Translations under genes and position numbers: made by a program
Part shown: piece after piece, positions 9,001 to 63,205 of the stretch
How positions within the stretch are numbered: position 1 is the stretch's first letter
How the letters are laid out: every line of letters begins with the position of its first letter
The notes under the pieces: model-generated
What the model was told of the DNA's origin: nothing
What the model saw: only the letters and a program-made list of their open reading frames with translations
Database searches by the model: none
From: an uncultured virus (IMG/VR IMGVR_UViG_3300037427_003924)
Taxonomy: Duplodnaviria > Heunggongvirae > Uroviricota > Caudoviricetes
Strand: one strand, 5' to 3'
DNA length: 64,000 bases
Virus record (IMG/VR): IMGVR_UViG_3300037427_003924

Positions 9001-12000
9001 TATGATTTCCATCATGGTAAATCCTAAGGTCGTTTCCTGTTCCAAAGTAAGCCGTAGCATTATCTACAAAAGAAGCTCCACCAAGAATTGCGGTTCCTGT
9101 TACTGTAACGCCACCAGAGTTTGTGGCTAGTTTTATTGCGTTGTCATAGTAAAGAGTTACAGCACCGTTTCCAGTTAACGTAATACCATTCTCGCCACCT
9201 TGAGGCTGAATAAATATATCATCATCTGACCTTAAATATAAGTCACCAGAAGTTTCACTTGCTACATATAATGACCCAGTATTTTTTATATGGGAGTTGG
9301 AACCATCATGGTAAAGCTGAAGGTCTTTTCCGCCACCCAATGCTATTCTTGAGTTATCGGGCCATTTTGTATATGCCGTGGTAACTCCTCCTGCATAGGT
9401 TGTGTCGCCTCCATTAACGCTGAAATAGTCAAAGGTTCCTCCTCCGTCACCTCGGTCAGCCGTAAACACAATGTTTCCATCAGTTACGCTGCTTTTTATA
9501 TTTAACGCCCCTACTCCTACTTGCCAGATGTACGAATTATTACCGTCATGGTAAAAACGCAAATCGCTGCCTCCACCAAATCGCAACTGTGTTGAATCTG
9601 GAATAGCTAGGAAAGTTTCATAAAGTGAAAGTACTGCTGCACTATTTTGTTTGAACTGGATAAAATTACCTGACCCGTATGAATTTATGTAAGTGTCCTT
9701 ACCCGCATCAGCTTCAATCCGAAAACAATTATCTGATCCATTGTTTAAATTTAGCACGCCACTGAACGTAGCATTACCACCAACCGTCAGCGCACTGTTG
9801 AATGTGGCTGCCCCTGCTTCTGACATATCAAGAGTAAGAGCAGTAACAGTTGAGCCGCCATCGTTGCCTTGAAAGATTAGATCTTTATCTGAAACAGTAG
9901 ACTTTATATAAAAATCTGATGAAGTTAACTTGAAAAGTCCAACAGAGGTTCCTGCGTCTTTAAGATAAATATACGCACCATCAGCATCAAGATTAATGAT
10001 ACCTGCAGCGTCTAGCGTTAAATCTCCTGAACTTACGTCTATCTCTTGGCTACTAATGCTCATGTTGCCTGTTTTAATCAGGTCATTGAATATCGCATTA
10101 CCACCTGCTGACATATCAAGGGTAAGGGCTGTTATAGCTGAACCACCATCGTTACCTTTAAATACCATATCAGCATCTGAAATAGCGCTATAAAAAGATG
10201 GGCCACCACCACCGCCACCTCTACCGATTTCTAATACCGCAGTGCCATTATCTTTAAATCTCCAATTAGCAGTATTAGAATCAAGGATAATATCTCCTGC
10301 AACATCTAGTGTTAAATTTGAAGACGATAGAGATATAGTTGTTCCGTCTATATTGATGTTATCTATATTTATTCCAGCATTAGCGGTTACCGCTCCTGAG
10401 AACGTAGCGACGCCCGCTGTAGAGATGAGAAGTGGAGCGGTGCTACCCGTGTCATCCGAGACTGCAAATGACCCGTCTGTTTTAATACCGATGCCCCAAC
10501 GCCTAGCTGTTGTGCCAGTTCGCTCAACAAACACCCCGCCACCTCCAGCGCCAGCTATTAGTAGTGTCCTATCGCTTGCCAGCCAGCCCGGTGTGAAAGA
10601 CGGCGTGGTTGTCCCCATGCTAACATTACCGTCACCATCAAACACCATAACATGACGGTTATCGGTTACATCCTTAATACTAAACCTGCCGGGGCCAGCG
10701 AGATTGTTAGCTAATGACCATTCTGACCCAACCGACTTTATTTTTATCTGTGAGGGCATCCCGGCAAGGCCAGTCGTACGCTCTAATAATATTTCCGCGG
10801 TACCATCAACCGCAACATGTAAAGGAGCACTAGGGGTAGCTGTCCCTATACCTATTTTACTACTTGATTGCGATATTACAGAATCTCCTATTGTATTTGC
10901 ATCACTCCATAATGGAACTTTGTTCGCAGTTCCTCCGCCATCTATAACAGTCGCGGGAATCAATCCAGAGACAGTAGCTATCTCCGAAGTTAAAGTTTGG
11001 CCAGTAGTCACGAGATTATTGGCAACAGTATTAATGTTTGTCGTGAGTGTCTGGCCAGTAGTAACTAAATTACTACTTAAATTTGTAATGTCCGTATCGT
11101 TGGACGTAATCTGGGTTTGTAGTGTCTGCCCAGTCGTAATCAAGTTTCCGCTGATATCGTCTACAACTTTTCCTGTAGATATTAAGTTTGTGGAAACTGT
11201 ATTAATGTTGGTTGTTAAAGTCTGGCCTGTCGTAACAAGGTTACTAGTTAAAGTAGAAATATCAGAATCATTGCTAGTAATTTGAGTCTGTAGTGTTTGA
11301 CCGGTAGTACCTAAGTTAGTGGTCAGGGTTGATATGTCGCCATCGTTACTGGTAATCTGGGTTTGTAGAGTTTGCCCTGAAGTTCCTAAGTTTGTAGAAA
11401 CTGTATTGATATTAGTAGTAAGAGTTTGCCCTGTTGTGATTAAGTTTGATGCGCTTGCTACTACTTCGCCTTCTACAGCTAGAGGGAAGTTTAGTTCAAA
11501 TCTATCGTTAGCATCGTTGTATAAAATGTTTGCATTAGCTGCAGTTCCGCGATCAATTACGATACCTCCAGAAATTCTGCTGATCCCAGCGCCACTTTCG
11601 CCGCTGTTAATTTCAATTATATTATCTTTAACCGCCAGATTCTCTACATCAACAACAACTTCAGTTCCCGTAACTGTTAAGTTGTTTATTGTAACGTCGT
11701 TGGTAAATATTTTATTTCCAGCTATACTCTGATTAGTTGTCAGCTTAACCGTAGTGGAGTCTAGTGTGCTGATGTCAGAGTCGTTACTAGTAATTTGAGT
11801 TTGTAATGTCTGCCCAGTTGTTCCTAAGTTTGTTGTTAGGCTCGCAATGTCACTATCGTTTGAAGTGATTTGAGTTTGCAAGGTCTGGCCTGTAGTTCCC
11901 AAATTACTTGTAAGCGTCGAGATATCTGAATCGTTGCTGGTAATCTGAGTTTGTAAAGTTTGGCCGCTAGTACCCAAGTTAGTCGCAACTGTATTTATAT

Positions 12001-14368
12001 TAGTTGTTAATGTTTGACCTGTAGTGACTAAGTTGGATGTTAAAGTAGTAATGTCGCCGTCGTTACTAGTGATCTGAGCCTGAAGAGTCTGTCCAGTAGT
12101 TATTAGATTGCCACTAATGTCGTCAACAACTTTTCCTGTTGATATCAGGTTCGACGAAACAGTATTTATATTAGTAGTTAAAGTCTGACCAGTTGTAACA
12201 AGGTTCGAGGTAAGAGTTGATATATCAGAATCATTGCTGGTTATCTGCGTTTGCAGAGTCTGGCCTGTCGTAATAAGATTTCCACTGATGTCATCTACTG
12301 CGCTCCCTGTGGAAACTAAGTTGTTTGAATTAGTAACGGTTAACCCAGAAACTATTCCAATCTCACTGGTTAAAGTTTGTCCACTAGTTATAAGATTACC
12401 GCTTAGCTCTCTAAAGTCTTGCTCAGATCCTCCTGTAGCTAACCCCGAAACTATTGCAATCTCTGATGTTAGAGTTTGCCCTGTGGTGACTAAGTTCGAT
12501 GTTAACGCCGAAATATCCGAGTCGTTACTCGTGATTTGAGTTTGGAGAGTTTGACCCGTAGTAACCAGATTACTTGTAATATTAGATATATCGTTATCAT
12601 TTGATGTTATTTGTGTTTGCAGTGTTTGACCCGTAGTGATCAAGTTACCGCTTACATCGTCGATAACACTTCCGGTAGTTATTAAATTACTTGTAAGAGT
12701 CGCTATATCTGAATCATTAGATGTAATTTGAGTTTGTAGAGTTTGGCCAGTAGTAATTAAATTACCGCTAATGTCATCTACTACAGCCCCAGTTGAGACT
12801 AAGTTAGAACTAACCAAGTTTATGTTAGTTGTAAGAGTTTGACCAGTGGTGATAAGATTCCCACTCAGAGTATCTACTTTTCCACTTAAATCGGGGTCAG
12901 AGCTTGAACCAGTTGTTAATCCTGAAACTATGGCTATTTCGGACGTAAGTGTTTGACCTGTGGTAATTAAATTGGAAGTTAAATTCGTTATATCCCCATC
13001 GTTGGAGGTGATCTGAGTTTGTAACGTTTGCCCAGTAGTCACAAGATTACTAGTCAGATCAGAGACATCTAAGTCGTTGCTAGTAATTTGAGTCTGCAGT
13101 GTTTGACCGGTAGTGATAAGATTGGTTGAAAGAGAAGATATATTACTAACATTTGAGGCAATGTTAACTACGTTGGTCGAAATATCGCTACTTAAATTTT
13201 GCCCCGTCGTTATAAGATTTCCGCTTATGTCGTCAACTATAGACCCCGTTGATATTAAGTTGGAGCTAACCGTATTGATATCAGCTGCATTACTTGTTAT
13301 CTGACTTTGTAATGTCTGCCCCGTCGTGATTAAGTTGCCGCTCAAGGCAGCGAAGTCTTCAGCTGAACCACCTGTAGCTATTCCAGAAACTATAGCTATT
13401 TCAGAGGTGAGGGTTTGGCCGGTAGTTACCAAATTAGAAATATCAGTACTTAGGTTATTACTAATGGTAGAAATCTGAACATCATTACTGGTGATTTGCG
13501 CCTGAAGAGTCTGCCCAGTTGTTATAAGGTTTCCGCTGATGTCATCTACCTTACCGCTCAAAGCTGTCACGTCGGTATGGTTTTCCGCAATACCAGAGAC
13601 TATAGTTATCTCAGAAGTCAGAGTTTGACCAGTAGTGATTAAATTACTTGTTAAATCAGCAATATCCGAATCATTGCTTGTTATCTGTGCTTGAAGCGTT
13701 TGATTGACGTCAGCGACATGGTTTAAAAGTGTTTGTCCCGTTGTTATTAGATTGCCGCTTAGTGTATCCACTTTGCCGCTTAGAGCAGGGTCAGAACTTG
13801 AGCCTGTAGTCAATCCTGAAACGATAGCTATCTCAGAAGTTAACGTTTGACCTGTGGTTATCAGATTGTTTGTGATATTATAAACATCAGTTAATATATT
13901 CTGTATGTCACCATCATTTGAAGTAATTTGGACTTGAAGTGTTTGTCCCGTAGTTATTAGATTCCCGCTTAAAGTGTTTACTGTACCACTTAGGGATGTT
14001 AAATCCTGCCCACCAGCAATACCCGAGACTATCGCTATTTCATCCGTTAAATACTGCCCCGTGGTGATTAAGTTGCCGCTTAGGTCCGTTAAATCCTGCC
14101 CACCTGCAATACCTGAAACTATGGCTATTTCGTCTGTGAGGTATTGACCGGTAGAAACAAGTCCTCCGCTTAATTGATTAAACCCATCAGAAGTGAGGGT
14201 TATATTCTCTGTTATGTAATTAGTAACAACCCCTATATCCGGGATTTGTCCTGTTACATTAGTGATGGGAGCCGCACCAGCTACCGTCGTGACTCCATCA
14301 ACGCGGGTATCCACTACTGTTGAAGTAGTTCCGCTTATAGTGACATCAACTACAGTCTGGCTGCTCAT
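1..14368 (-). CDS. Giant modular tail fibre/adhesin, >=4789 aa, 3'-truncated by window edge
   Basis: ATG at 14368 (MSSQTVVDVTISG...). The same frame reads as protein at position 1 (...YITKWTDGDTIGNSSIQDNGSAVVINDASGDVDFR). N-terminal SGNLITTGQTL coiled-coil repeats, then many GNVGIGTT.P modules. Absent from the ORF track, consistent with no stop in the window; not checked codon by codon. Confidence 0.85.
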   Translation of the reverse strand, partial: MSSQTVVDVTISGTTSTVVDTRVDGVTTVAGAAPITNVTGQIPDIGVVTNYITENITLTSDGFNQLSGGLVSTGQYLTDEIAIVSGIAGGQDLTDLSGNLITTGQYLTDEIAIVSGIAGGQDLTSLSGTVNTLSGNLITTGQTLQVQITSNDGDIQNILTDVYNITNNLITTGQTLTSEIAIVSGLTTGSSSDPALSGKVDTLSGNLITTGQTLLNHVADVNQTLQAQITSNDSDIADLTSNLITTGQTLTSEITIVSGIAENHTDVTALSGKVDDISGNLITTGQTLQAQITSNDVQISTISNNLSTDISNLVTTGQTLTSEIAIVSGIATGGSAEDFAALSGNLITTGQTLQSQITSNAADINTVSSNLISTGSIVDDISGNLITTGQNLSSDISTNVVNIASNVSNISSLSTNLITTGQTLQTQITSNDLDVSDLTSNLVTTGQTLQTQITSNDGDITNLTSNLITTGQTLTSEIAIVSGLTTGSSSDPDLSGKVDTLSGNLITTGQTLTTNINLVSSNLVSTGAVVDDISGNLITTGQTLQTQITSNDSDIATLTSNLITTGSVIDDVSGNLITTGQTLQTQITSNDNDISNITSNLVTTGQTLQTQITSNDSDISALTSNLVTTGQTLTSEIAIVSGLATGGSEQDFRELSGNLITSGQTLTSEIGIVSGLTVTNSNNLVSTGSAVDDISGNLITTGQTLQTQITSNDSDISTLTSNLVTTGQTLTTNINTVSSNLISTGKVVDDISGNLITTGQTLQAQITSNDGDITTLTSNLVTTGQTLTTNINTVATNLGTSGQTLQTQITSNDSDISTLTSNLGTTGQTLQTQITSNDSDIASLTTNLGTTGQTLQTQITSNDSDISTLDSTTVKLTTNQSIAGNKIFTNDVTINNLTVTGTEVVVDVENLAVKDNIIEINSGESGAGISRISGGIVIDRGTAANANILYNDANDRFELNFPLAVEGEVVASASNLITTGQTLTTNINTVSTNLGTSGQTLQTQITSNDGDISTLTTNLGTTGQTLQTQITSNDSDISTLTSNLVTTGQTLTTNINTVSTNLISTGKVVDDISGNLITTGQTLQTQITSNDTDITNLSSNLVTTGQTLTTNINTVANNLVTTGQTLTSEIATVSGLIPATVIDGGGTANKVPLWSDANTIGDSVISQSSSKIGIGTATPSAPLHVAVDGTAEILLERTTGLAGMPSQIKIKSVGSEWSLANNLAGPGRFSIKDVTDNRHVMVFDGDGNVSMGTTTPSFTPGWLASDRTLLIAGAGGGGVFVERTGTTARRWGIGIKTDGSFAVSDDTGSTAPLLISTAGVATFSGAVTANAGINIDNINIDGTTISLSSSNLTLDVAGDIILDSNTANWRFKDNGTAVLEIGRGGGGGGPSFYSAISDADMVFKGNDGGSAITALTLDMSAGGNAIFNDLIKTGNMSISSQEIDVSSGDLTLDAAGIINLDADGAYIYLKDAGTSVGLFKLTSSDFYIKSTVSDKDLIFQGNDGGSTVTALTLDMSEAGAATFNSALTVGGNATFSGVLNLNNGSDNCFRIEADAGKDTYINSYGSGNFIQFKQNSAAVLSLYETFLAIPDSTQLRFGGGSDLRFYHDGNNSYIWQVGVGALNIKSSVTDGNIVFTADRGDGGGTFDYFSVNGGDTTYAGGVTTAYTKWPDNSRIALGGGKDLQLYHDGSNSHIKNTGSLYVASETSGDLYLRSDDDIFIQPQGGENGITLTGNGAVTLYYDNAIKLATNSGGVTVTGTAILGGASFVDNATAYFGTGNDLRIYHDGNHSYIKDAGTGSLVLATSRLSINNAASNEEMISAIQNGAVELFYANSKKLETTSTGVTVTGAGTFSTSLKAATILDASNSAGTSGQILTSTGSALDWKTLGEISGVDGSGTANYLSKWTDTDTIGNSTIYDDGKVSIASPTASASTYGARLNVEESAAWSQGIALYINNSATYNNSKPTAFLGVANSSANVFLSAGARVVGDPASANWGKTSNSTTAAFYRQLNAAHIWYTNTSLTADTAYTPTERMRIAADGNVGIGTIAPSADLEVSTASGGELLVTRSGNSGVTLQQVNGGAATSGSLAIKAGTAISFSTNGTNQGLYINNQTYPRVGIGTNSFRSIGGLNPQLLNIEGVNSQWDSGLTIVSNATGDYEAACLVLGRTGGTTAGSNTIVTDNDVLGRIIFTAADGVDMRVTPAEIRSSVDDSSPAADSIKGNLEFYTNDGSSVAPTVRFSIAPAGAVTFNSAFTFPTADGSAGQVLQTNGSGTVTWSTVTGGGGVSGSGTDNYIPRWNGTTALQNSAIFSDDNDNVGIGTAAPGSNTPLHIYTNSASDQTILLDNDGSGRSGLKLRADRNSDGNSTGFIIFDALNDASQDTRYATIESFIVDNTDGTEDGALRFSVMAAGTDTESMTISARSGISDIGFVGIGTNAPAFPLQVYGANQTNGSAKRIVAFLDTTSAAAGTGAGIALGGYTNGTGGAINDFGVIQGIKENGTADNYASALTFHTRANGANTTEQMRINSAGNVGVGTVAPAAHLHVSKAVGATTVLTQVAANSTVGYEIKKTGSTTQHWKIVDGQTANGYLEIYDATDSATRMAFNTNGNVGIGTVNAPHLLTLKGDNKYFASYASDGSIAVQLGADSSGDGNFILFDHSGGTKVKLYAESGGANYINNGGNFGIGTTAPATPLHVYSTANDVLKIQGADHVRVLIDGTDSSEKSLNFSEAGSLMWKLGMENIAPLEAFVIKNNDNGAPQFVIDYTTGYVGIGVDPDGIGFRAEQSVNGNWAGLIKNTHATNGHGLKVQAGDDSAVTSFRVADVSNTTLLEVLGDGKVGIGTDAPISKLEVSENFGTTAGVTKLRITARTQGAYDGDAHLEFAYNDWGNVNVPNLLASIQGLASVTAPTNVGGELAFATKALGGATATAPVERMRIDPAGKVGIGTNAPDSLLQIANANGSSYRFGYAGTSDVYFDADDVYFRSDNGGVNNMVLKGSKLGIGTTAPGAKLHVYGGNIRISSTDDKPQLEFFETAAARWVIGHSTAPNNYFAISEGSDVAASERLVIAPTTGSVGIGTTAPDGILHVANTTYIDAPTNTGNSSALIWRRLDKTIVGRIVSDTTNLRTQFWDNNSSVLTISNDKVGIGSENPAYKLDVRGDYIFVDEGKGIRFGGSSHQVTRETGNELRLKAANTTGFITFLTGGGTEYMRIAADGKVGIGNTNPAAPLTVTADSGANAFALRARSADDYSFIQFFNNAGSALRGQIYSKSTGDIGFTTGTDSSAGNDLYIKNGTGVGIGTTAPSVHLDVYASVGWGVVDIDGVSGGELRFQKAGTTWLDIYGNDSSYAVLKATSHLSIYVNSSTLAAYFKSDGNVGIGTDAPTTKLSVKSTGSNVDEISLVHSGNTVKLVSLGQESSHGSIYVRANSGVAQARISAVNSNYFLQNVGIGTTAPLCKLDIRTTSASLTDAGATVNIEEDTAWTQGLAFYLNNADVNNADYASACIGVANSGSNIIITSGARVVNNTNTTSAYKTLNSTTPAVYRQLNGAHVFYGDTGETVNTVYTPTERMRIDASGKVGIGTTAPVAQLMVSEAIPPGTQIGGSNTLKLAAVSSNAVGRRMEIGFDQFYGSTYSHSVIGQIVTSRTSFETGDLYFATKDGTTNVAPTERMRITSAGNVGIGTTAPSRPLSIYNNSLACLQLCNSTTGAATGDGFQMQLSGSTGYIYNYEAGDIIFGTSAATRLTISAAGVATFAGAVTVNGPLTGTTAKFSGDAQIGFTGGLNTWYSGITQLAIGANQSAVVGNSSYIGVQENSYLNASGLWKKVGAGGASNVWQDDGTIYLRTAVTGGSADDTISWNYPLTLSPTGAATFGGALTGTTATLAGTGLANAPTLAIDNSSSGTYVHSLEAYTANITSGQTNILVVGKEGNNKNCGYIGYKWNGDGSDANLLTLGHWGSNHLLTIAPTGAATFSGALTANSTIQVSRSSASPLFQVTDADAGGGAKSRWFGLVDGTSRFAIYGTNGSTEEFQLDGGTATFSTAVAVGNSYIYNNYIRSSNIRVTDNGYLGSQSVQSVIQIQGDGDVAIGYPTTINSSLKATTILDTNNSAGTNGQVLTTTGSGLDWKTLSEISGVDGSGTANYISKWTDSDTIGNSIVYNHAYGVVINATNLTSYASNRQVLEVRGTAGTGDFDGGITNLSASSDTNAHRVGQLAFINTANANHVNPNSTIGSRIAQIISTVVTSDSNAGDDSGGDLQFWTKPEAGVPAERMRIASGGNVGIGITAPSELLHVDGGGYFEGDVVRDGGWHRGLEITTQNASYASLYFGNQQTSKYSGIIWTSTTSGNTVSARGAQVYAQPTSAANTDLRFDTNNAVGTSSPTLKMIIRGDGKVGIGTTAPAYQLDVRGSGATTLQVKSANNSDDTQLKLQSNAFFFNITNQGAGGNITYVSDDAQDQIWYTDNASNSSVERFRIEGGADVDSVYFSNSHVGIGTTAPSAMLDVVTPASSTVYAAEITQSNTSNGDGLYVNIGSTSASDYVATFRSSNNNLFDIKGNGNVGIGTASPGQLLHVWKAGVLEPNFQSTTGRVGLQLNAGAAGDVGWILYSGYPAAGDFNIRQSGVANCLVIKKTTGYVGIGTDSPGSLLTISGNSDDGDNACALAINDEDSTGGSKLPAIMFYGGGTMQGRIRGGDATFSIAVGSSPSTALSINTTSRKLTLGSYGSGTHTGTAAYKLSVDSSGNVIETSIGSGAVDGSGSANYITKWTDGDTIGNSSIQDNGSAVVINDASGDVDFR

Positions 14369-26129: not shown

Positions 26130-29100
26130 TTAAATTCTTTTCTTTAGTTCTTCTATTTCCTTATACAGCTCTTTAAAGCCGCCCAATAATACAGTCACTG
26201 CTCGACTATAATTTACACTGGAAGGATTACCTTTTTCGTCCTTCTCGACCAATTCTGGGAAGAGTTCCGCAAGTTCTTCCGCGATTAAACCTATTTCTTT
26301 TTTATCTTTATTTGTCTTTCTATTATATTTTACCGGGCGGATTTTATTTATTATATCTAAACTTGGGGTATAAGTTTCAACATTTTCTTTCAATGTTATA
26401 CTTGAAGTTTCAGTTAAGGTTCCTGTTACTGTAACGCCAGCTGATGTTGTAGCGATTTTAGTACTACCTTGATACAGTAAACTAGTAACTCCTGCTTGAG
26501 TCATGATTACATGGTAATAACTCGCTGTACCTAACTTGAAAGTCTCATCAGCCAAAACCAATGCGCTACCCATAATTGTGGTAGTGCCCGGTTTATCTAT
26601 AACAATACCAGACCTCGTACTCGCTGAGGTAAACCTTGCGTTATAATCGGACCCTCCATTAACATGCAACAGTCGTGAAGGATTAGTTGTCCCTATTCCA
26701 ACGTTGCCGTCAGTCTTAACATACATCCGCACCGTGTCGTCTGTGTAGAACTTTAGAAAGTCTCCTGAATTGCTTCCACCGATTCTTGCCTTGGTTCCAC
26801 CCCACTCAATTACATAGGCATCAGTTAACCGGATATTGCCAGACTTAACTTCAAGTTTTGTAGCTGGCGTAGTAGTCCCTATACCAACATTACCCGCCTT
26901 ATCCAACGTCATTTTTGAGCCAAACGAACTGGCTCCGTTTCTGGTCGCAAAATGTAACTTGGAATAAAATGAAGAATGGTTTTCCATCTCCATATACATT
27001 CCCCCCATATATGCAGCACTGACGGCCCCCTCAAATAAAACTCCCGCCAAGTTACCATCAGTATCTGAAGTATTTTTTAAATTTATATGTACGCTATTAG
27101 TTCCGTATGGCGCGTTTTCATCTACAGCAGTATGAGATCCGTTGATTTGCAGTTCTGATGATGGCTCATCAGTTCCAATACCAACGCCCCCATCTTTATC
27201 TATGATCATCCCACAGCCATCACTAAAATCTGCTCTAAATAAATTACTACCACTAGCATGACCCTTTGCGCCGCGGTTACCTGCGTTATATGCTCTTATA
27301 AGAGCGTTATCTCCACCCCAAGTTGAGTCGTTTCCTAGGTAAGATATAAAAGGAGAACTTGCGCTATTAGTACCAACACCTAACCTTCCATAATTTGAAA
27401 GCGTTATTGTGGCGCTACTAGTACTAAAATTAGTAAGTGTAGCGGTATTAGTTAAAGTTGTACCACTTTCACTTAAAAAGGAAGAGTCCGTTACGGTATC
27501 GGTGTCAGACCATTTGGTCATTTTTCCAGCAGTACCGGTTCCGTCTACGCTTCCAGCGCCGGGAGAAGCCGCCCACGTAACATCCCCAGATCCGTCAGTC
27601 GTCAGTACATATCCGTTAGTACCAAAGGAACCGTCCTTGTCTTTTAGGCCCGCATCTAATTCTATATAACCATTAAATAAGGCACCTACATCAAACGTGG
27701 CTAAACTACCAGCTACTTTTAAAATGTTGCTATTGTTGACTCGTAAATGAACGGTTTTTCCTGATGCTGCGTTAAGGTAAGTATTTCCATCAGAATACTG
27801 GAGTAGACAATAGTTTGAAGTACCCCCCATACTGCGATGGCTGAACCCTGCATAATCACCATGCCCCATTCCCCCTCCAATTTTAGTAGGACCAATTAAA
27901 GCGTAATCACTATTCCCATCGTTCCCTACCTCTAGTAATTGACCCGGATCAGTTGTCCCTATACCAACTTTGCCGTCATCAGTAATTCTCATTCTCTCCT
28001 CAGCTACAGCACCATTAGGTCTTGTAATAAAAACTAAATGCGCAGAGTAGTCACCTCCCGCATCAATCGCCGCAATGCCAGTTCCACCATTAGAATGGTA
28101 ACCACTAGTTTGTAAAAATATTCCAACAGCACTACCTGCGGTTGAATTTGGATTTGCAATTATTGTATCATGCCATGTTGCCCCATTAGACGCCGAAAAA
28201 GCAGTTGACCTGTTTGTTCCTTGAACCTCAAATTTTGCATTTGGCGTAAGAGCCCCAACACCAACATTGCCATCATTCAGAACTACGAATCTATAATCAC
28301 TACCCGCAACACATCCTAATACATATCCACCTGTTGCAGTTGTAGAACTATAGTCCGTTTTAACTATAAGGCCACTCGGGGTGCTGGTAGTAGCTGTGTT
28401 GTGTATTCTGGAAATCCAATCTCCAGTTTGAGAACCTGTAACTTCTAACTTGTAACCCGGCGCATTAATCCCAATGCCGACATTGCCGTTGGATATAATC
28501 CGCATACGATCAGTATTGTCCGTGGAGAAAAACACATAGTCACCCGTATTGCTGCCACCTATCTTCGCTTTTGTGCCACCCCACTCAACGTACTGATCGT
28601 TGGCTAGGCGTATATTACCCCCGGCGACCTCTAGTTTAGCCCCCGGCGCAACAGCCCCGATGCCGACATTGCCGTCACCAATAATACGTACTTTTTCTGA
28701 AGATGTGCCAGCGTTGTCTGTGAAGAATGAAATGTAACCGGTATTGTTGGCCCCCGTAGTCCCACTTTGAATCATCGCTACTCCACCGGCGTTATTTCCA
28801 AATAGTATTGTAGAAACAATATCCGTGCTATTGTTGTTAGCATGTTTTAAAAATATCTCTGCCCCTTCGTCATGCGATCCATCACTTTCAATGTGTAATT
28901 TTGCAGAAGGAACAGTAGTGCCGATACCGACATTGCCGTCACTCTTGAGGAACATAGTAGTAACCATTGCTGAAACACCGTTGTAGTTTTGCAATGATAA
29001 ACTATAGTTAGAAACTAAACCCTCTACAATTCTCGCATCACCATTCGCCCAATCTAGGGCTCCTCCGCTTGGTAAATCAAATTCTGAACCATACACAGGC

Positions 29101-32100
29101 CCATTAACATAAAGTTGAGCGTTGTTGTTATTGGTTGTTGCAGTATCATTAATGAGGACTTTGCCATCAGTTTTAAATCTAACTTTTTCGCTATCTTCAT
29201 GGACAAAAATAAAATCTGATGTGTTACCCGAAATAAATTTATTACCAATAAACCATTCAGCAGTGCTTGTCCTAAATTGTATTAAAGACATAGCCCCCGC
29301 CGTGGTACTGTTGTTCTGTAACCTTAATCCATTACCGCCCCAATTGCCACTGCTGCCACCGCTAAAACTAGTATCGTTATTAGTAAATCTAACGTCCAGA
29401 TCATAGTAAGGGACATCTGCTCCGATGCCCACTTTGCCTCCTTTCAAAAAAGAAGCCCCGTTAGGGTTAAGTTGAACATTGGTTGCGCCGCCACCTGACG
29501 TTCCTTCGCTTATCAATAATTGCTTGTCCGCCCCCGCTTTGTAAATGTGAACAGTATTAGCTACTGTAACTATAGATCCGTTATCCTGTATCGTAGAATC
29601 TCCTTGAGCACTTGTTCCAGTCCATTTGGAAATATAGTTTGTCGAACCCGTTCCAGTAACAGTTCCTCCGCCGGGAGCCGTGCCGTTAGATGCCGCAGTT
29701 AACCTGCCTTGAGCATTGACAGTTATTGCAGCGTAAGTGTAAGACCCGGGAGTAACTTCAGTATCCTTAAGAGCCGGAGCAGCATCACTACGCATGAAAG
29801 TCGTGGCTGTACCGTTAGTAGCCGCTCCAGAAATTACCGCGGTAGGGTTCGCGCCTACAGGAAGTGCGTTAGTTAGAAATTGACCCGTTGCTATTAGGTT
29901 CGTTACGTTGGTAGCGACACCAGCCGTGTTCGTATCGACAAACGCACCGGTTGCGATCAGGTTCGTCGTGTTACTGGCGATGTCCGTAGCGTTGGTAACG
30001 ATACCCGCCGCGTTCGTAGTTCCCGTTGACGCTATTAGATTCGTTAACGTTTGACCCGTTGTAATCAAGTCACCGCTTAACAAATCGATGACGTGACCGG
30101 TAGGATTTAAATCCGTATGAGCCTCGGCAATACCGGAAACGATAGCTATTTCGGAAGTCAAATACGTACCCGTTGCGACTAGGTTCGATGCGTTGGTCGC
30201 AATATTTGTTACATTAGTTGCGACACCAGCCGTGTTTGTATCGATAAACACGCCAGTGGCAATTAGGTTCGTCGTGTTACTGGCGATGTTAGTTGCGTTG
30301 GTAGCGACACCAGCCGTGTTCGTATCGACGAACACGCCAGTTGCGACTAGGTTCGCTGCGTTAGTAGCGACACCAGCCGTGTTCGTATCGACGAACACGC
30401 CAGTTGCGACTAGGTTCGCTGCGTTAGTAGCGACACCAGCCGTGTTCGTATCGACGAACACGCCAGTTGCGACTAGGTTCGCTGCGTTAGTAGCGACACC
30501 AGCCGTGTTCGTATCGACGAACACGCCAGTGGCAATTAGGTTCGTCGTGTTACTGGCGATGTTAGTTGCGTTGGTAGCGACACCAGCCGTGTTCGTATCG
30601 ACGAACACGCCAGTTGCGACTAGGTTCGCTGCGTTAGTAGCGACACCAGCCGTGTTCGTATCGACGAACACGCCAGTTGCGACTAGGTTCGCTGCGGTTG
30701 CGTAATAAGCTGCGTGCTGACCATCTAACAAATCAGCGTTAAGGTTGGTTACTACTGTATTACTAGTTACCTCTAATGGAGCAGTGCCCTGAGCCACGGT
30801 AGACTTGAGTACAGTAGCTGACGCTGTACCACCCACGGTAATAGCAGATGCAGTTTCCGTTATTATAGAGTCAGTTATAGCGCTTGTACCCGACCACTTC
30901 GTGATCTTCCCCGCGGTACCGGTTCCAGTTACAGTTCCACTTCCATTAGTTTCCCATGCAATTCCTCCTGCTCCGTCAGTCGTCAGAACCTGACCGTCAG
31001 TTCCGCTGCCTCCGTTGATTTTTAACTTCGCGCTCTTTATATCTACAACGCCATCAGACTGAATCCGCATCCATTCAGTAACAGCCGTTCCGTTATTAGT
31101 TGTTAAAAACGCTAGATACCCATTGACCGCAGTATCGCTATTAGACTGAACTCCACCCCGAACTTCAGAGTGAACTATATTAGCAGTACCATCGTTGTCT
31201 TTCCCCATGAATTGAAGGTATCCCAATGCTGCATCATCAGCGGGAGAAGCGTTGTTATTATATAGCTGTAATGCTAATGCATTGTCGGTTCGTTCAAATT
31301 TAATAGCGTCTCCAACGACATGGAGTTTCTGTGCTGGCGCAGTAGTACCGATGCCGACTTTACCGTCCGGGAGAAAAGTCACTCTATTCGCGTTATTTGC
31401 GTAATTGTAGATAGACAACTTGTCGGTTCCCGCGTAATCGTGAACAACAGCCCACTTGGCACTTCCATTTTGAGCAAAAGTAAGATAAGAATCCTTAGCT
31501 GCCCCTGCGTCAATTTTGACACTTGCGTCTGTTGCGTCTGAAGACTTGATGAGAACCTGTGGATTGCTCCCTTCAACGTGTAAAAGTTTTGATGGAACAG
31601 TAGTCCCAATGCCGACTTTGCCGTCTGCTTTAACCACGACTCTTGTTGTAGAATCTTCTATCAATTCAAGAATATTCCCAGAGCCGTCTTGGTCTACAAT
31701 TAATGCTGTCTGGTCATCGTCTGGGTGAGTTTGCCTCACTATCATTACCGGCAGCGAGGTAGAACTCGCTGGAAGATTTCTATAAAATTGAAAAGTGGCA
31801 TAACTATCGTAACCTAACCTCGCCCATGCTCCATCATGGGTAACATCCAACTTTGCAGCAGGCGCTGTAGTCCCGATGCCGACCTTATCTCCCGTAATAG
31901 TTATTCGAGATGCAAGAGAGCCATTATTTTGAGTATAAAGTTTTAAAGCGCCGCCTTCCGAACCACTTACTACTGAAGTAATTTCAGCTTCTATATCAGC
32001 ATAGATTACCTTATTTTCTTCAAACCCTGTATCGGTCCCATTATTTTTTCCTCTGAAACGTATAATACCTAAGTCGTCTGAATTTGCAGGACTAGGAGAG

Positions 32101-34664
32101 TTACGGTAGAGAACCAAATCCGGGGCGTCAGCGGCATTCGTAGCGGTAGACTCTACTAATAAAGAATCCCCTGCAGTGGTACCAGCGTAAACATGTAACT
32201 CCGCTTGAGGGGAAGCCGTAGAGATTCCTACTTTTAGCGCGTTATCATAGATAATCCCCGAAGTTAAAGTATCTTTATCAGACCAACGAGCTACATAATT
32301 AGCGACTCCTGAACCATCAATTGCGCCTGTAGTTACTAAACCAGAAACAATAGCTATTTCGTCAGTAAGGTATTGACCAGTTTGTATAAGGTTTCCACTA
32401 ATATCATCAACTATCGCTCCAGTAGCGATAAGATTAGTACTAACAGTATTAATGCTAGTTGTTAAAGTTTGCCCCGTCGTAATTAAATTGCCGCTTATAT
32501 CATCTACGATAGCGCCCGTAGCAACTAAATTAGTAGAAACGGTATTGATATTAGTCGTTAACGTTTGCCCCGTCGTGATTAAGTTGCCGCTAATGTCGTC
32601 AATTATCGCCCCAGTTAAGATTAGATTATTGGTTAATGTTTGGCCCGTGGTTATGAGATTACCGCTAATGTCATCTACAATCGCTCCAGTAGCTATAAGA
32701 TTAGATGTGTTGCTTGTAATTTGAGTCTGTAAAGTTTGACCGGTTGTGATCAAGTTTCCACTTACGTCGTCTACGATAGCACCCGTAGCAATCAAATTCG
32801 TGGCGACTGTATTAATATTAGTCGTTAACGTCTGGCCCGTTGTAATTAAATTACCGCTTACGTCATCAAGAATCGCTCCTGTAGCAATTAAGGCACCGCT
32901 TAGAGCTGCAAAATCTTCAGCAGAGCCTCCTGTCGCCAATCCAGAAACTATAGCTATCTCATCGGTAAGGTATTGACCAGTTTGGATAAGGTTCGATGCA
33001 TTAGTAGCGATGTTTGTCACGTTGGCGGCTATACCAACCGTGTTTGTATCCACGAAGACACCAGTTGCAATTAAGCTAGTTGTTAATGTCTGCCCTGTCG
33101 TAATTAAGTTTCCACTTACATCATCAACTATCGCACCCGTAGCAATTAGGTTACCGCTAATAGCGTCAACTATCGCTCCTGTTGCGACTAGATTTCCACT
33201 TAACCCATCGAAATCTCCTGAAGCTGCCCAAACGGGACCATTATCATTACTAGTAAGAACGTAGCCCTTGTCGCCAGTAGAGTTGGTTTGATCATAAAGC
33301 TTTCCACTAATTATTGCGCTTCCATTTACGTGAAGATCGTGGTAAGCAGTAGCAGTCCCAAGCCCTACATTGCCATCAGCATTAAAATACGCATCGGTTC
33401 CTATTTTTGTTGTTTTGTAACCGGGAGCGTCCCTGTCGTAGGAGTAAAGATACCCTATTTCTGTCCCGGTGTTATAAAGCATTTCAATCCCCACCCCCGC
33501 ACTAACGGAAGTGGCGTGTGTGGAACGTATTACTCCGCTAGCTTCAAGTAGAGATGTAGGATTAGTTGTACCTACTCCGACATTACCGCCTTGCGCGACA
33601 ACCATTCTAACATCAGAATTAGTTTTAAACTGTAGATTATCAGTAGAGTTTTCGTTATAGACAACCCATTTTCTGATAGCGCCTTCTGCCCATTCATAAC
33701 CGGCATTAGAATCAGCCCCAGCAGTAACTCTAATTCTGGGTTCTGACGCAGCGTAAACTTCTAAATTTTTTGCTGGCGTAGTAGTCCCGATACCGACATA
33801 ACCATTGTTAAATAGAAAATGATTGTAAGGAAATACCCCTGCGTTAACCCTTTTAAATTCTACTCCCGAAGCCCCATCATTCTGAGCTGCGAAAAAAGTG
33901 CCTACCGCATTTGGCCCTACAACCTGCAATTTTGCCCCCGGATTATTAGTCCCGATGCCGACAGCGCCCGCTTGATTAATTGAAACATTAGCGGCTCCTG
34001 CACTGGTGAAAGTTAATGTGTCAGCCGTACCACCTCCAACTTGAGTATCGTTTTTAATTCGCCATTTCGTCGCACCTGCCGCTTCCAATCTCAATGTAGC
34101 GTCAGTAGTGGCGCTGGAAGAATTTAATGTAGCGTCGCCATAAACCTCCAAAAGATATTGAGGGTTATCCGTCCCTATTCCTACATCACCATTATCAAAA
34201 ATAGTTCCCGAAGTTAAAGTATCTTCGTCAGACCAACGAGCTACATAGTTTGCAACGCCGGAACCTCCTACACCCGAGAGAACTGATTCAATACTTTTCC
34301 AATTAACACCAGTTTGCCCTTCGTTAGTTAGAACCATTCCTCCTTCGCCGAGGGTATTATTCGAATCGTAAATATTTCCGGAGATACCTAACTTGTTAAC
34401 ATTGAGACGGTTACCGTCTGTGAAAGTTAAATTAGCACTGCCCCCAAACGAACTAGAACTATTAAACTGAACAGAATTTAAAGGAGTAGCTGGATTTGTG
34501 CCTCCACCCCCTCCTCCTGCCAACTCCTCCCATGATCCATTCCTTAAAACTTTTTGGGCGAGGTCGCCCGTGTTGATAAGATACGCGCCGTCGAGTACTC
34601 CCGTAGGCTCAGCATCGCTACCACCTATTACAAATCTATCTCCTGCGTATCTTGTTACTGCCAT
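26130..34664 (-). CDS. Giant tail fibre, 2844 aa, with C-terminal peptidase S74-type intramolecular chaperone
   Basis: C-terminal SSITLKENV...IRPVKY...IGLIAEE...FPELV...VNY...KEL; VGIGT modules; coiled-coil repeats. Confidence 0.88.
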   Translation of the reverse strand: MAVTRYAGDRFVIGGSDAEPTGVLDGAYLINTGDLAQKVLRNGSWEELAGGGGGGTNPATPLNSVQFNSSSSFGGSANLTFTDGNRLNVNKLGISGNIYDSNNTLGEGGMVLTNEGQTGVNWKSIESVLSGVGGSGVANYVARWSDEDTLTSGTIFDNGDVGIGTDNPQYLLEVYGDATLNSSSATTDATLRLEAAGATKWRIKNDTQVGGGTADTLTFTSAGAANVSINQAGAVGIGTNNPGAKLQVVGPNAVGTFFAAQNDGASGVEFKRVNAGVFPYNHFLFNNGYVGIGTTTPAKNLEVYAASEPRIRVTAGADSNAGYEWAEGAIRKWVVYNENSTDNLQFKTNSDVRMVVAQGGNVGVGTTNPTSLLEASGVIRSTHATSVSAGVGIEMLYNTGTEIGYLYSYDRDAPGYKTTKIGTDAYFNADGNVGLGTATAYHDLHVNGSAIISGKLYDQTNSTGDKGYVLTSNDNGPVWAASGDFDGLSGNLVATGAIVDAISGNLIATGAIVDDVSGNLITTGQTLTTSLIATGVFVDTNTVGIAANVTNIATNASNLIQTGQYLTDEIAIVSGLATGGSAEDFAALSGALIATGAILDDVSGNLITTGQTLTTNINTVATNLIATGAIVDDVSGNLITTGQTLQTQITSNTSNLIATGAIVDDISGNLITTGQTLTNNLILTGAIIDDISGNLITTGQTLTTNINTVSTNLVATGAIVDDISGNLITTGQTLTTSINTVSTNLIATGAIVDDISGNLIQTGQYLTDEIAIVSGLVTTGAIDGSGVANYVARWSDKDTLTSGIIYDNALKVGISTASPQAELHVYAGTTAGDSLLVESTATNAADAPDLVLYRNSPSPANSDDLGIIRFRGKNNGTDTGFEENKVIYADIEAEITSVVSGSEGGALKLYTQNNGSLASRITITGDKVGIGTTAPAAKLDVTHDGAWARLGYDSYATFQFYRNLPASSTSLPVMIVRQTHPDDDQTALIVDQDGSGNILELIEDSTTRVVVKADGKVGIGTTVPSKLLHVEGSNPQVLIKSSDATDASVKIDAGAAKDSYLTFAQNGSAKWAVVHDYAGTDKLSIYNYANNANRVTFLPDGKVGIGTTAPAQKLHVVGDAIKFERTDNALALQLYNNNASPADDAALGYLQFMGKDNDGTANIVHSEVRGGVQSNSDTAVNGYLAFLTTNNGTAVTEWMRIQSDGVVDIKSAKLKINGGSGTDGQVLTTDGAGGIAWETNGSGTVTGTGTAGKITKWSGTSAITDSIITETASAITVGGTASATVLKSTVAQGTAPLEVTSNTVVTNLNADLLDGQHAAYYATAANLVATGVFVDTNTAGVATNAANLVATGVFVDTNTAGVATNATNIASNTTNLIATGVFVDTNTAGVATNAANLVATGVFVDTNTAGVATNAANLVATGVFVDTNTAGVATNAANLVATGVFVDTNTAGVATNATNIASNTTNLIATGVFIDTNTAGVATNVTNIATNASNLVATGTYLTSEIAIVSGIAEAHTDLNPTGHVIDLLSGDLITTGQTLTNLIASTGTTNAAGIVTNATDIASNTTNLIATGAFVDTNTAGVATNVTNLIATGQFLTNALPVGANPTAVISGAATNGTATTFMRSDAAPALKDTEVTPGSYTYAAITVNAQGRLTAASNGTAPGGGTVTGTGSTNYISKWTGTSAQGDSTIQDNGSIVTVANTVHIYKAGADKQLLISEGTSGGGATNVQLNPNGASFLKGGKVGIGADVPYYDLDVRFTNNDTSFSGGSSGNWGGNGLRLQNNSTTAGAMSLIQFRTSTAEWFIGNKFISGNTSDFIFVHEDSEKVRFKTDGKVLINDTATTNNNNAQLYVNGPVYGSEFDLPSGGALDWANGDARIVEGLVSNYSLSLQNYNGVSAMVTTMFLKSDGNVGIGTTVPSAKLHIESDGSHDEGAEIFLKHANNNSTDIVSTILFGNNAGGVAMIQSGTTGANNTGYISFFTDNAGTSSEKVRIIGDGNVGIGAVAPGAKLEVAGGNIRLANDQYVEWGGTKAKIGGSNTGDYVFFSTDNTDRMRIISNGNVGIGINAPGYKLEVTGSQTGDWISRIHNTATTSTPSGLIVKTDYSSTTATGGYVLGCVAGSDYRFVVLNDGNVGVGALTPNAKFEVQGTNRSTAFSASNGATWHDTIIANPNSTAGSAVGIFLQTSGYHSNGGTGIAAIDAGGDYSAHLVFITRPNGAVAEERMRITDDGKVGIGTTDPGQLLEVGNDGNSDYALIGPTKIGGGMGHGDYAGFSHRSMGGTSNYCLLQYSDGNTYLNAASGKTVHLRVNNSNILKVAGSLATFDVGALFNGYIELDAGLKDKDGSFGTNGYVLTTDGSGDVTWAASPGAGSVDGTGTAGKMTKWSDTDTVTDSSFLSESGTTLTNTATLTNFSTSSATITLSNYGRLGVGTNSASSPFISYLGNDSTWGGDNALIRAYNAGNRGAKGHASGSNLFRADFSDGCGMIIDKDGGVGIGTDEPSSELQINGSHTAVDENAPYGTNSVHINLKNTSDTDGNLAGVLFEGAVSAAYMGGMYMEMENHSSFYSKLHFATRNGASSFGSKMTLDKAGNVGIGTTTPATKLEVKSGNIRLTDAYVIEWGGTKARIGGSNSGDFLKFYTDDTVRMYVKTDGNVGIGTTNPSRLLHVNGGSDYNARFTSASTRSGIVIDKPGTTTIMGSALVLADETFKLGTASYYHVIMTQAGVTSLLYQGSTKIATTSAGVTVTGTLTETSSITLKENVETYTPSLDIINKIRPVKYNRKTNKDKKEIGLIAEELAELFPELVEKDEKGNPSSVNYSRAVTVLLGGFKELYKEIEELKKRI
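30190..30697 (-). repeat. Near-identical 63/84-nt in-frame tandem repeats
   Basis: Units AANLVATGVFVDTNTAGVATN (21 aa), some extended by 7 aa; several are identical at DNA level. Confidence 0.92.
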
Positions 34665-61326: not shown

Positions 61327-61388
61327 AACTTCAAATAGTATAAGTTAAATTGTTTCTAGAGTCAACTATAAAAATAACTTTTTTAAAT

Positions 61389-61462
61389 TGGACGCGAGGG
61401 AGGGAATCGAACCCTCAATTGTTCTTTTGCAGAGAACCGTCTTGCCGTTTGACCACCCCGCG
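61389..61462 (-). tRNA. tRNA-Cys(GCA), CCA encoded
   Basis: Acceptor CGCGGGG/CCTCGCG, D stem GTC/GAC, anticodon GTTCT-CTGCAAA-AGAAC, T arm GAGGG-TTCGATT-CCCTC, U discriminator, 74 nt. Confidence 0.95.
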
Positions 61463-61555
61463 ATTGTAAGACCCCTTTCCCTTCTTGGGACGATGCACCC
61501 GCTCACCAGTGTTCCAACTGACTACTGCTCGGGGCTTTTTAGGTTTCTCACTCAC
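61415..61555 (-). CDS. ArfA-like ribosome rescue peptide, 46 aa, overlapping the tRNA
   Basis: GTG 8 nt after TTGACA-16-TATTAT; MSEKPKKPRAVVSWNTGERVHRPKKGKGSYNRGVVKRQDGSLQKNN. Confidence 0.65.
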   Translation of the reverse strand: MSEKPKKPRAVVSWNTGERVHRPKKGKGSYNRGVVKRQDGSLQKNN

Positions 61556-61654
61556 AGGTGTTAATAATATCACACTTTACACATATGTCAACAGTAAAAA
61601 TGTTTTTTTTAGGGGTTGACAAGTAGACCCTTTTATCCTATACTCATCCCAGTT

Positions 61655-61909
61655 ATGAAACTTAAAGAAATCAAAAACGGATCAATCTACTACAATACCA
61701 AGAAGAACCGTGCAGAGCGGGTAATCTCTAATACTTTTAGCAGTTCGCGAGTTGTGACAGAATTCCACGGTAAGAATCAAAGCGCGGTTGCTACTCGAAA
61801 CATTCGACTCGCTAACAGCGTAGAAGTGGAAAAATACCTAGATAGAACAAGGAAAGGTAATCTAATGACTTTTTTCGGAAGACTCTTCTCTCCGAAGAAA
61901 CTCGCTTGA
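61655..61909 (+). CDS. Early hypothetical protein
   Basis: TTGACA-17-TATACT-10-ATG. Confidence 0.7.
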   Translation: MKLKEIKNGSIYYNTKKNRAERVISNTFSSSRVVTEFHGKNQSAVATRNIRLANSVEVEKYLDRTRKGNLMTFFGRLFSPKKLA

Positions 61910-62150: not shown

Positions 62151-62302
62151 CGTTTCTAAAAGGTCAGTCTTTAGGAAAGAATCGTGCCAACTTCGGGCTA
62201 AATAAAAAAATATTTTTTTTAAAATAATGATGATTTAGGGGTTGACTCTGGATCTTAAATATGAGAAGATATTCGTGTTCTGAGGGAGAACTAAAAAACG
62301 TT

Positions 62303-63205
62303 ATGGCTAGAAACACAAAACCTACAAGTTCCGAATTCGACTACACAGTCGTGCAGGAACCGCTGTTCAACCGTGATGGTAAAGCCGTCAAGGTTGGTAA
62401 TTCTCCAATTATGGGGAATTTTCGCACAGACAACAATGTCTGCTTAGGTACGTCCACTGAGGCGTATGAAATCGTCAATAACGAATCAGTTGTTGAAGTA
62501 GTTGAGGATGCCTTTGCCGGTGCTGGCTTAGGTGACTTCGAGAGAGAAATCGTGGTTGCTCGTGAGGGCGCACGTTTTTATGGAGTCTATGACTTCCCAA
62601 CGCAGGAACGTCACATCGCCAACGTCGGTGATGTCGTGTCTCTTCGTTTGACCTTAAACAACTCATTTGATAGGAGTTGTGGTCTCAACTGGGCCGTGGG
62701 CATGATGCGTAAGATCTGCTCGAATGGGATGTGTTCGCTGGTGGCTGACACCAACGTCACCAAAAAGCACAGCGCAAAGCTGGATCTGTCCTTCATTAAG
62801 GAAGGAATCGACGCATCGGTTGAAAAATTCGATGCATCTGTTGAGGCTTTCAAAAACCTCGGCAAGCGTGAGATCACCCAAAAAGAGGGCGGACTCATTC
62901 TGGACAACCTCGCCATCAAAAAGGTGCTTTCCGAGTCTCTTCGGGATTCAATCCAGATGGTCTGGGACTCGCCTACCTTCGCCAAGGAGGATGAAGGTCG
63001 CAACCTGTACAACCTGTACAACGCGGCCACGGAGCATCTCACGCGTGAGGTGCAGTCAACTCGGTTTGAGTATGCCAATCGAGTCAATCGGGGCGTGCTT
63101 ACTAATCTGTCACGCGCAGAGCAGAGCGCCGCTCATTTCGCCAAGCTGACGGCCAAGGTTCCTGAAAAGGAAAAGGTCATCACTGAGGTGACGCTGACGG
63201 CCTAA
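62303..63205 (+). CDS. DUF932-family protein
   Basis: RTD...LG...Y.IV.N...GAR...NSFD.S...R.IC.NG...KH...LYNAATE. Confidence 0.75.
   Translation: MARNTKPTSSEFDYTVVQEPLFNRDGKAVKVGNSPIMGNFRTDNNVCLGTSTEAYEIVNNESVVEVVEDAFAGAGLGDFEREIVVAREGARFYGVYDFPTQERHIANVGDVVSLRLTLNNSFDRSCGLNWAVGMMRKICSNGMCSLVADTNVTKKHSAKLDLSFIKEGIDASVEKFDASVEAFKNLGKREITQKEGGLILDNLAIKKVLSESLRDSIQMVWDSPTFAKEDEGRNLYNLYNAATEHLTREVQSTRFEYANRVNRGVLTNLSRAEQSAAHFAKLTAKVPEKEKVITEVTLTA

Follow-up and report, generated by a model that had tools for sequence, protein, structure and literature searches.

RNase P cuts the 5′ ends of tRNAs generally, and in E. coli it separates the protein gene from the tRNA on the shared secG-leuU and tRNA-tufB transcripts, where the ORFs end with their own stops before the tRNA and do not overlap it. 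In mitochondria, ORFs abut tRNAs whose excision sets the mRNA 3′ end and may leave the stop incomplete (tRNA punctuation), and nonstop mitochondrial mRNAs are reportedly the topic of one study (PMC9674279); polyadenylation completes the stop there, and the tRNA body is not coding. Among ribosome rescue systems, BrfA of Bacillus subtilis, which is small and RF2-dependent, serves as a back-up and is translated from a message that has no stop codon, with no tRNA involved. One of the closest described systems is ArfA of E. coli and other beta- and gamma-proteobacteria (YhdL, PF03889), a small basic protein whose motif ...RV.+.KKGKGSY.R is located in the mRNA entry channel and whose mRNA contains a structured element, a hairpin processed by RNase III, that starts just past the Tyr codon. 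Expression of ArfA from a stop-less message, via RNase III or via a terminator within the ORF, is textbook knowledge. The review PMC8012679 reports that the active E. coli product lacks the last 17-18 of 72 residues, that ArfA cut to 40 residues is inactive, with no rescue activity (citing Chadani 2011a), that its N terminus becomes ordered upon RF2 opening, and that the A18T substitution in this segment blocks RF2 activation. Phage-borne ArfA is already known as well: gp30 of pelagiphage HTVC027P carries an ArfA domain (PF03889) and is reported to reach high expression both at early and at late stages of infection, and the passage of PMC12753301 that describes it mentions no tRNA overlap.

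The locus described here lies in a window of 64,000 nt (the whole stretch of DNA that was analyzed) from an uncultured marine Caudoviricetes virus (IMG/VR IMGVR_UViG_3300037427_003924). The window carries a large terminase, tail-fibre proteins and PhoH; no close relative was found among 50,697 deposited phage genomes, and the nearest record, G001, is identical to it across the region. Two giant ORFs on the minus strand occupy the structural region, one at 2-14368 (>4789 aa, running off the edge of the window) and another at 26130-34664 (2844 aa). An earlier note, made from the sequence alone, had described a promoter TTGACA-16-TATTAT followed 8 nt on by the GTG of a 46-codon ArfA-like ORF, an Arg codon of which forms the first three nucleotides of an intact tRNA-Cys and whose stop lies inside the tRNA at the start of the T arm. 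All of these elements were found as claimed, with the stop at tRNA nucleotides 46-48, and are arranged as follows:

61564..61591, minus strand: sigma70-type promoter, with -35 TTGACA at 61591-61586, a 16-nt spacer and a TG-extended -10 TATTAT at 61569-61564
GTG 61555 to TGA 61417-61415, minus strand: reading frame of the mini-ArfA ORF, 46 codons
61463..61555, minus strand: mini-ArfA's own 31 codons (GTG ... KKGKGSY-N), which are also the 5′ leader of the tRNA precursor
61415..61462, minus strand: dual-use stretch, codons 32-46 (R GVVKRQDGSLQKNN) plus TGA, which are also tRNA-Cys nucleotides 1-48
61462..61389, minus strand: tRNA-Cys (GCA) found by ARAGORN, 74 nt, C1:G72, U73, CCA encoded
between 61463 and 61462, minus strand: expected RNase P site, placed from the tRNA 5′ end
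61366..61388, minus strand: A/T-rich spacer 3′ of the tRNA, which aligns to the end of the ORF, coding for its tail, in L005, a relative without the tRNA
61337..61365, minus strand: next promoter, TTGACT-17-TATACT, for the downstream gene, kept in most relatives and in L005
60685..61326, minus strand: downstream gene, Phage_L5_gp82-like, 213 aa, PF25735 / phrog_586
61616..61909, plus strand: divergent promoter (61616-61644) and 84-aa ORF (61655-61909), back-to-back with the minus-strand unit

On the minus strand, the frame runs from the GTG (61555) through ...RVHRPKKGKGSYN, followed by CGC (Arg), GVVKRQDGSLQKNN and TGA, and its part upstream of the CGC ends ...WNTGERVHRPKKGKGSYN. The Arg codon coincides with tRNA nucleotides 1-3 (CGC; CGT in the relative L066), and the TGA comprises the last variable-loop base and the first two T-stem bases; the stop begins at tRNA position 46 in every compared locus but L077. 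Base 61463 is at once the third base of the Asn codon and U-1 of the precursor, 61462 being tRNA nucleotide 1, and base -1 is T in 20 of 20 distinct ORF sequences, in which codon 31 is AAT or GAT only. The tRNA-Cys is the sole tRNA that ARAGORN finds in the window. The nearest analogies are the bacterial co-transcripts and mitochondrial tRNA punctuation. Unlike the secG-leuU and tRNA-tufB ORFs, however, this ORF overlaps its tRNA, and unlike the mitochondrial case, 45 tRNA nucleotides serve as codons and the tRNA itself contains the stop. The locus also differs from BrfA in that a tRNA takes part.

The promoter matches the consensus at 11 of 12 positions, with TG ahead of the -10 box. Since the region holds three promoter-like sites, close to the 2.5 +/- 1.6 expected from shuffles, support for this promoter comes from its conservation, in 27 of 29 aligned relatives, and not from the site count. 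The divergent plus-strand promoter bounds the unit, so that minus-strand transcription should start from the promoter at 61564..61591, which is predicted to drive both the mini-ArfA ORF and the tRNA-Cys. Contigs from the RNA libraries X1-X3 cover 61337-61611 in pieces and bridge the junction between leader and tRNA, but they include the promoter and may be DNA. Just past the divergent 84-aa ORF, on the plus strand, lies a gene for a DUF932 (PF06067) protein (314 aa, 62261-63205), which is 91% identical in the related contig L003.

By profile comparison, the ORF is a homologue of ArfA in reduced form, which we call mini-ArfA. A search with the window ORF matched Pfam ArfA (PF03889) at E 1.4e-4, as the ArfA-like character claimed for it had implied, but with 21.6-21.7 bits the match is under the curated cut-off of 25.5 bits; searches with this single sequence against NCBIfam and against the PDB returned no match. 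The family as a whole gave a clearer answer: 30 of 33 aligned members match Pfam ArfA at E <= 0.01 (best 1.6e-6), and the top PDB matches of the family profile are E. coli ArfA chains (5h5u, E 3.2e-4), with one capsid chain at a weaker E-value. The segment ERVHRPKKGKGSYNR of the window ORF aligns to positions 25-39 of the 44 in the PF03889 HMM and, in the PDB search with the family profile, to QRVEKNKKGKGSYMR of E. coli ArfA. In this alignment, the family consensus eRvHkpKKGKGSYkRkkk faces QRVEKNKKGKGSYMRKGKH, which agrees with the E. coli motif quoted in the earlier note, and the channel-binding motif RV.+.KKGKGSY.R is present in the window ORF.

We then compared the mini-ArfA alignment by hhalign with an alignment of eight canonical ArfA sequences from Shewanella, Neisseria and Agarivorans loci. 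The two match with a probability of 96.8% and E 2.4e-10 over 27 columns, the aligned part being PRAVVSWNT-GERVHRPKKGKGSYNRGV against IKALVTSELFRQRVEKPKKGKGSYNRKA, and the strand-like segment that adjoins the KKGKGSY motif falls inside it. The match covers canonical columns 17-45 only. About 16 canonical N-terminal residues are absent from the mini-ArfA family, in line with a caveat already attached to the N terminus when the ORF was first noticed, and the seven residues that precede the aligned part in the mini form are unrelated to the canonical G.I.DNA segment. Because mini-ArfA is without the N-terminal segment tied to RF2 activation, its rescue activity appears uncertain. A complex prediction from the mini-ArfA alignment with E. 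coli RF2 gave a score of 0.00 and a partner pLDDT <50, and hence no answer either way.

The ORF belongs to a sizeable family. Protein searches returned 19 proteins with the ORF and 259 with the profile; many of these proteins carry a precomputed PF03889 match, and some relatives are named ArfA by JGI, or by NCBI in the case of 39-aa proteins of Verrucomicrobiota MAGs. At least 30 viral contigs encode the core KPR..I.WNTG.RVH.PKKGKGSY.R, and mini-ArfA-like loci of viruses number at least 30 in one scan and at least 80 in another. The Arg two residues past the Tyr is present in 33 of 33 mini-ArfA family members and in 8 of 8 canonical ArfAs, and at least four residues follow the Tyr in all 90 distinct viral loci (the window's clade being counted to its stop). 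When the region, the ORF and the protein P0016 were searched by blastn and tblastn against the 50,697 phage records, the outcome was no matches or trivial ones, a result that is uninformative on cultured phages, as the low-complexity filter may hide KKGKGSY.

A terminator (hairpin plus T run) lies before the stop in 17 of the 90 distinct viral loci and after it in 3, and 70 have no terminator-like site near the stop. In the 17 loci, the T run begins 20-52 nt past the Tyr codon, so that their stop-less products would retain the Arg and a basic tail; with transcripts ending past the hairpin, about 8-19 residues would remain after the Tyr. The hairpin itself begins 1-6 nt past the Tyr codon in several of these loci. 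They include L004, L006, L007, L093, L094, L096, L103, L131 and L138, and further L142, L144, L152 and L160; also counted are L130, L159 and L164, long ORFs that may fall outside the family. The classical stop-less design of ArfA thus exists in some phage ArfA-like genes, and the canonical ArfA genes of Neisseria and Shewanella have the same design. The 39-aa genes of Verrucomicrobiota (L032-L036) have an ordinary TGA, with a strong and conserved terminator about 10 nt beyond it, and this short form in bacteria is not built on the stop-less design; these genes too start with GTG, without an obvious Shine-Dalgarno sequence.

Association with a tRNA is rare in the family: among the listed viral ArfA-like loci, a tRNA was found at 2 of 30 and at 1 of 80, all from the window's clade, to which tRNA linkage within the KKGKGSY family appears to be confined. 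In 8 of 25 family loci, a sigma70-like -10 box has its end 6-10 nt upstream of the start codon, and mini-ArfA genes may typically be expressed from leaderless mRNAs. No Shine-Dalgarno-like sequence was seen in those eight loci (L002, L003, L005, L011, L017, L018, L020 and L021). The Phage_L5_gp82-like gene, which is Cys-rich, stands beside or near mini-ArfA in several otherwise different phage contigs, and tblastn with it matched L003, L005, L012 and L020-L022.

Comparison with one of these contigs suggests how the overlap arose. L005 has the same promoter, a mini-ArfA ORF, the next promoter and the Phage_L5_gp82-like gene, but no tRNA, and its ORF ends ...SYNRKKGKKSS with its own stop. When the three are aligned, the window and L003 show about 76 bases that are missing from L005; these start immediately past the Arg codon (CGA in L005 and CGC in the window) and end before an A-rich stretch that matches the tail-coding sequence of L005. 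Given that L005 is syntenic and without a tRNA, and that tRNAs are absent from 28 of 30 and 79 of 80 listed viral loci, the parsimonious reading of the alignment is that a tRNA-Cys was inserted into the 3′ end of the gene, at the invariant Arg codon. The spacer at 61366..61388 probably derives from the tail of the ancestral ORF. In L005 and in the likewise tRNA-less L020-L022, the ORF stop either overlaps the next promoter's -35 box or lies directly beside it; the TGA of L005 sits within GTTGACT, the gene tail and the next promoter sharing sequence.

To collect relatives of the fused form, we used a degenerate pattern drawn from the tRNA body and not from the ORF, which retrieved 36 metagenome contigs and, with the window, gave 37 loci. 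In all 37, the ArfA-like frame runs into the tRNA, with the junction SY[N/D] followed in frame by tRNA nucleotide 1 (L059 shows the last eight leader codons only). No homologue in the window's clade stops before the tRNA, and any RNase P cut must consequently leave a stop-less message. L059 and L070, with <170 nt upstream, were dropped; the remaining 35 loci represent 29 distinct sequences, in all of which the GTG is invariant (29/29), and the core motif is unchanged in 27 of the 28 that are free of gaps.

The codon analysis used 20 distinct ORF sequences, L066 being left out for a 1-nt gap. The sequences differ mostly at third positions: of 30 columns for each codon position, 11 vary at the first, 5 at the second and 23 at the third. 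Arg, Gly, Ser and Pro codons swap freely while the residues stay unchanged. Over the 31 leader codons, mean pS was 0.548 and mean pN 0.089, for a pN/pS of 0.16, with pS reaching 0.8-0.9, near saturation, in the most distant pairs. The ORF frame is the only one of six that is open in all 20 distinct sequences (0 stops); the other five have pN/pS of 0.28-2.2 and 11-72 stops across the set. These data are strong evolutionary evidence that the leader has been read as protein throughout the divergence since its fusion to the tRNA. The earlier note had made its reading depend on translation of the leader, which we accept on the basis of this purifying selection at the protein level.

The tRNA bears marks of constraint of its own. 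A compensatory change converts the T stem from GAGGG/CCCTC to GACGG/CCGTC, and in L066 changes in the acceptor stem have matching partners, its CGT variant still coding for Arg and still pairing, as U:G. L066 and L060 score 58-59 bits against Rfam RF00005, for a cut-off of 29. When the whole precursor was folded, the cloverleaf formed and the leader folded separately, no better than shuffles (z -1.3); alternative pairing between leader and tRNA was sought in this fold, which gave no sign of a structural switch. On this evidence the tRNA-Cys is a working tRNA, and both overlapping products, peptide and tRNA, are under selection. Damaged variants exist as well. L077, the translation of which matches the protein P0027, has KGMGSY for KGKGSY and no TGA in the tRNA, whose acceptor 3′ strand is mismatched and which fails the Rfam cut-off, and this module looks decayed. 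L066 has lost 1 nt within an A run, which shifts its GTG out of frame. Both variants lie in a different genomic context, without the usual promoter.

Based on these results, we propose that the locus is a mini-ArfA gene with an inserted tRNA-Cys, in which one transcript has two fates and the 46-aa read-through form is the active product, a model to which we give about even chances. Mini-ArfA keeps the segment with which E. coli ArfA occupies the vacant mRNA channel when a ribosome has stalled, and would itself act on stalled ribosomes. The single promoter would give a single transcript, probably leaderless, with its 5′ end at or just before the GTG; such a start is supported as a family habit by the spacing of the -10 box in the 8 of 25 loci mentioned above. 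In the first fate, the ribosome would read through the unfolded or melted tRNA to the UGA at nucleotides 46-48, and a ribosome trailing the polymerase on a leaderless message could plausibly reach the tRNA before it folds. The product would be a peptide of 46 aa that includes the invariant Arg and 14 further residues encoded by the tRNA, in a tail with Lys, Arg and Lys. In the second fate, the tRNA would fold and RNase P would cut at its 5′ end, releasing the tRNA-Cys and a stop-less message of 31 codons that ends ...UAC AAU; the resulting peptide ...KKGKGSYN, without the Arg, would probably be inactive and a target of tmRNA tagging. Maturation of the tRNA would thereby limit or end mini-ArfA synthesis, unlike in E. 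coli, where ArfA is made only when tmRNA is saturated.

We favor the 46-aa form because the cut loses the invariant Arg, yields a peptide that matches an inactive truncation and leaves one residue after the Tyr. Several points count against this explanation. In E. coli, leaderless initiation at a 5′-terminal GUG is poor; cleavage by RNase P is as a rule rapid and could leave little full-length message; and the tail that the tRNA encodes has a less basic character than those of relatives. In addition, the window ORF scores under the Pfam cut-off and has no match in NCBIfam or, as a single sequence, in the PDB, mini-ArfA is without the canonical N-terminal segment, and most phage relatives have plain stops, so that the function of the family needs no special control. 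A more far-reaching version, which we offer as tentative, holds that with 48 nt of one strand common to a protein gene and a tRNA gene, ribosome and RNase P would compete for each transcript, so that the phage would read the translation and RNA-processing state of its host, the outcome being either an active rescue factor or a tRNA-Cys and a stop-less message cleared by tmRNA.

The likeness to E. coli ArfA invites another model, in which the RNase P cut is the designed route to a stop-less, arfA-type message and the 31-aa peptide is active, accumulating only when tmRNA tagging is saturated. Both genes encode small basic proteins, both have a structured RNA element that starts just past the Tyr codon, and in both the processing of that element would remove the stop codon; in mini-ArfA, the element is a working tRNA and the expected nuclease RNase P, in place of a hairpin and RNase III. 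A stop-less message must result from every cut, base -1 is U without exception, terminators precede the stop in 17 of 90 phage loci against 3 in which they follow it, several of the hairpins start 1-6 nt past the Tyr codon, much as this tRNA does, and the canonical genes of Neisseria and Shewanella share the stop-less design. The position of the cut argues the other way. RNase P would cut one residue past the Tyr and remove the invariant Arg, whereas E. coli ArfA retains about 15 residues past Tyr39 and the terminator-type relatives about 8-19. In E. coli numbering (Y39, M40, R41), the peptide from the RNase P-cut message is the counterpart of the 40-residue truncation, for which the review PMC8012679 reports no activity. 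Moreover, the gene of L005, syntenic and ancestor-like, has an ordinary stop, as do most phage relatives. We thus consider this model unlikely. The suggestion that the phage reaches ArfA-like control via RNase P, made in the earlier note, stands insofar as any cut leaves a stop-less message, but control of the ArfA type is unsupported, with the Arg lost and the truncation inactive; the loss of this Arg, which that note had listed as a caveat, becomes the main objection.

It may also be asked if mini-ArfA is a rescue factor at all. The protein could instead plug empty mRNA channels and so keep out tmRNA-SmpB or host ArfA, or it could otherwise adjust ribosomes to the needs of the phage; the overlap with the tRNA would then be only a by-product of insertion that selection put up with. 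This would account for a family that keeps the channel-binding motif while its N-terminal G.I.DNA segment has no counterpart (hhalign columns 17-45), in view of the tie between RF2 activation and the ordering of the N terminus described in the review PMC8012679, and most family members are found in phages (at least 30 and at least 80 viral loci in the two scans). It accords less well with the occurrence of the same short form in Verrucomicrobiota genomes, where NCBI annotates it as ArfA, with the presence of the strand-like segment beside the motif in the hhalign-aligned part, and with the subset of the family that keeps the stop-less design typical of back-up rescue factors. The high expression of the pelagiphage ArfA-domain gene during infection, as given in the passage of PMC12753301, fits either reading. 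On balance, we regard a role outside rescue as doubtful.

It is highly improbable that only the tRNA matters and that the ORF is either a relic in decay or a frame that happens to be open in the leader of a tRNA: the state of L077 (KGMGSY, no TGA, a tRNA under the Rfam cut-off) and the 1-nt deletion of L066 that puts GTG out of frame would fit it, but it is disfavored by a pN/pS of 0.16 with pS of up to 0.9, all accumulated after the fusion, by the single open frame of six and by a core motif unchanged in 27 of 28 sequences.

In the literature searched, from which subscription journals were mostly absent, we found no paper on an ArfA gene that overlaps a tRNA or on a stop-less arfA message made by RNase P; the overlap of ArfA and tRNA is thus without a published precedent found there. 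To our knowledge, it is very unusual in bacteria and phages for a selected coding frame to overlap a working tRNA on the same strand. On the preferred reading of an inserted tRNA-Cys and an active read-through form, the locus offers a compact and directly testable example of competition between ribosome and RNase P over a single RNA, and it raises the question of whether tRNA maturation can make a stop-less message. Short ArfA-like genes are common in phages, and about one-fifth of them have the terminator inside the ORF that is the hallmark of back-up rescue factors, which suggests that phages often manipulate or supplement ribosome rescue.
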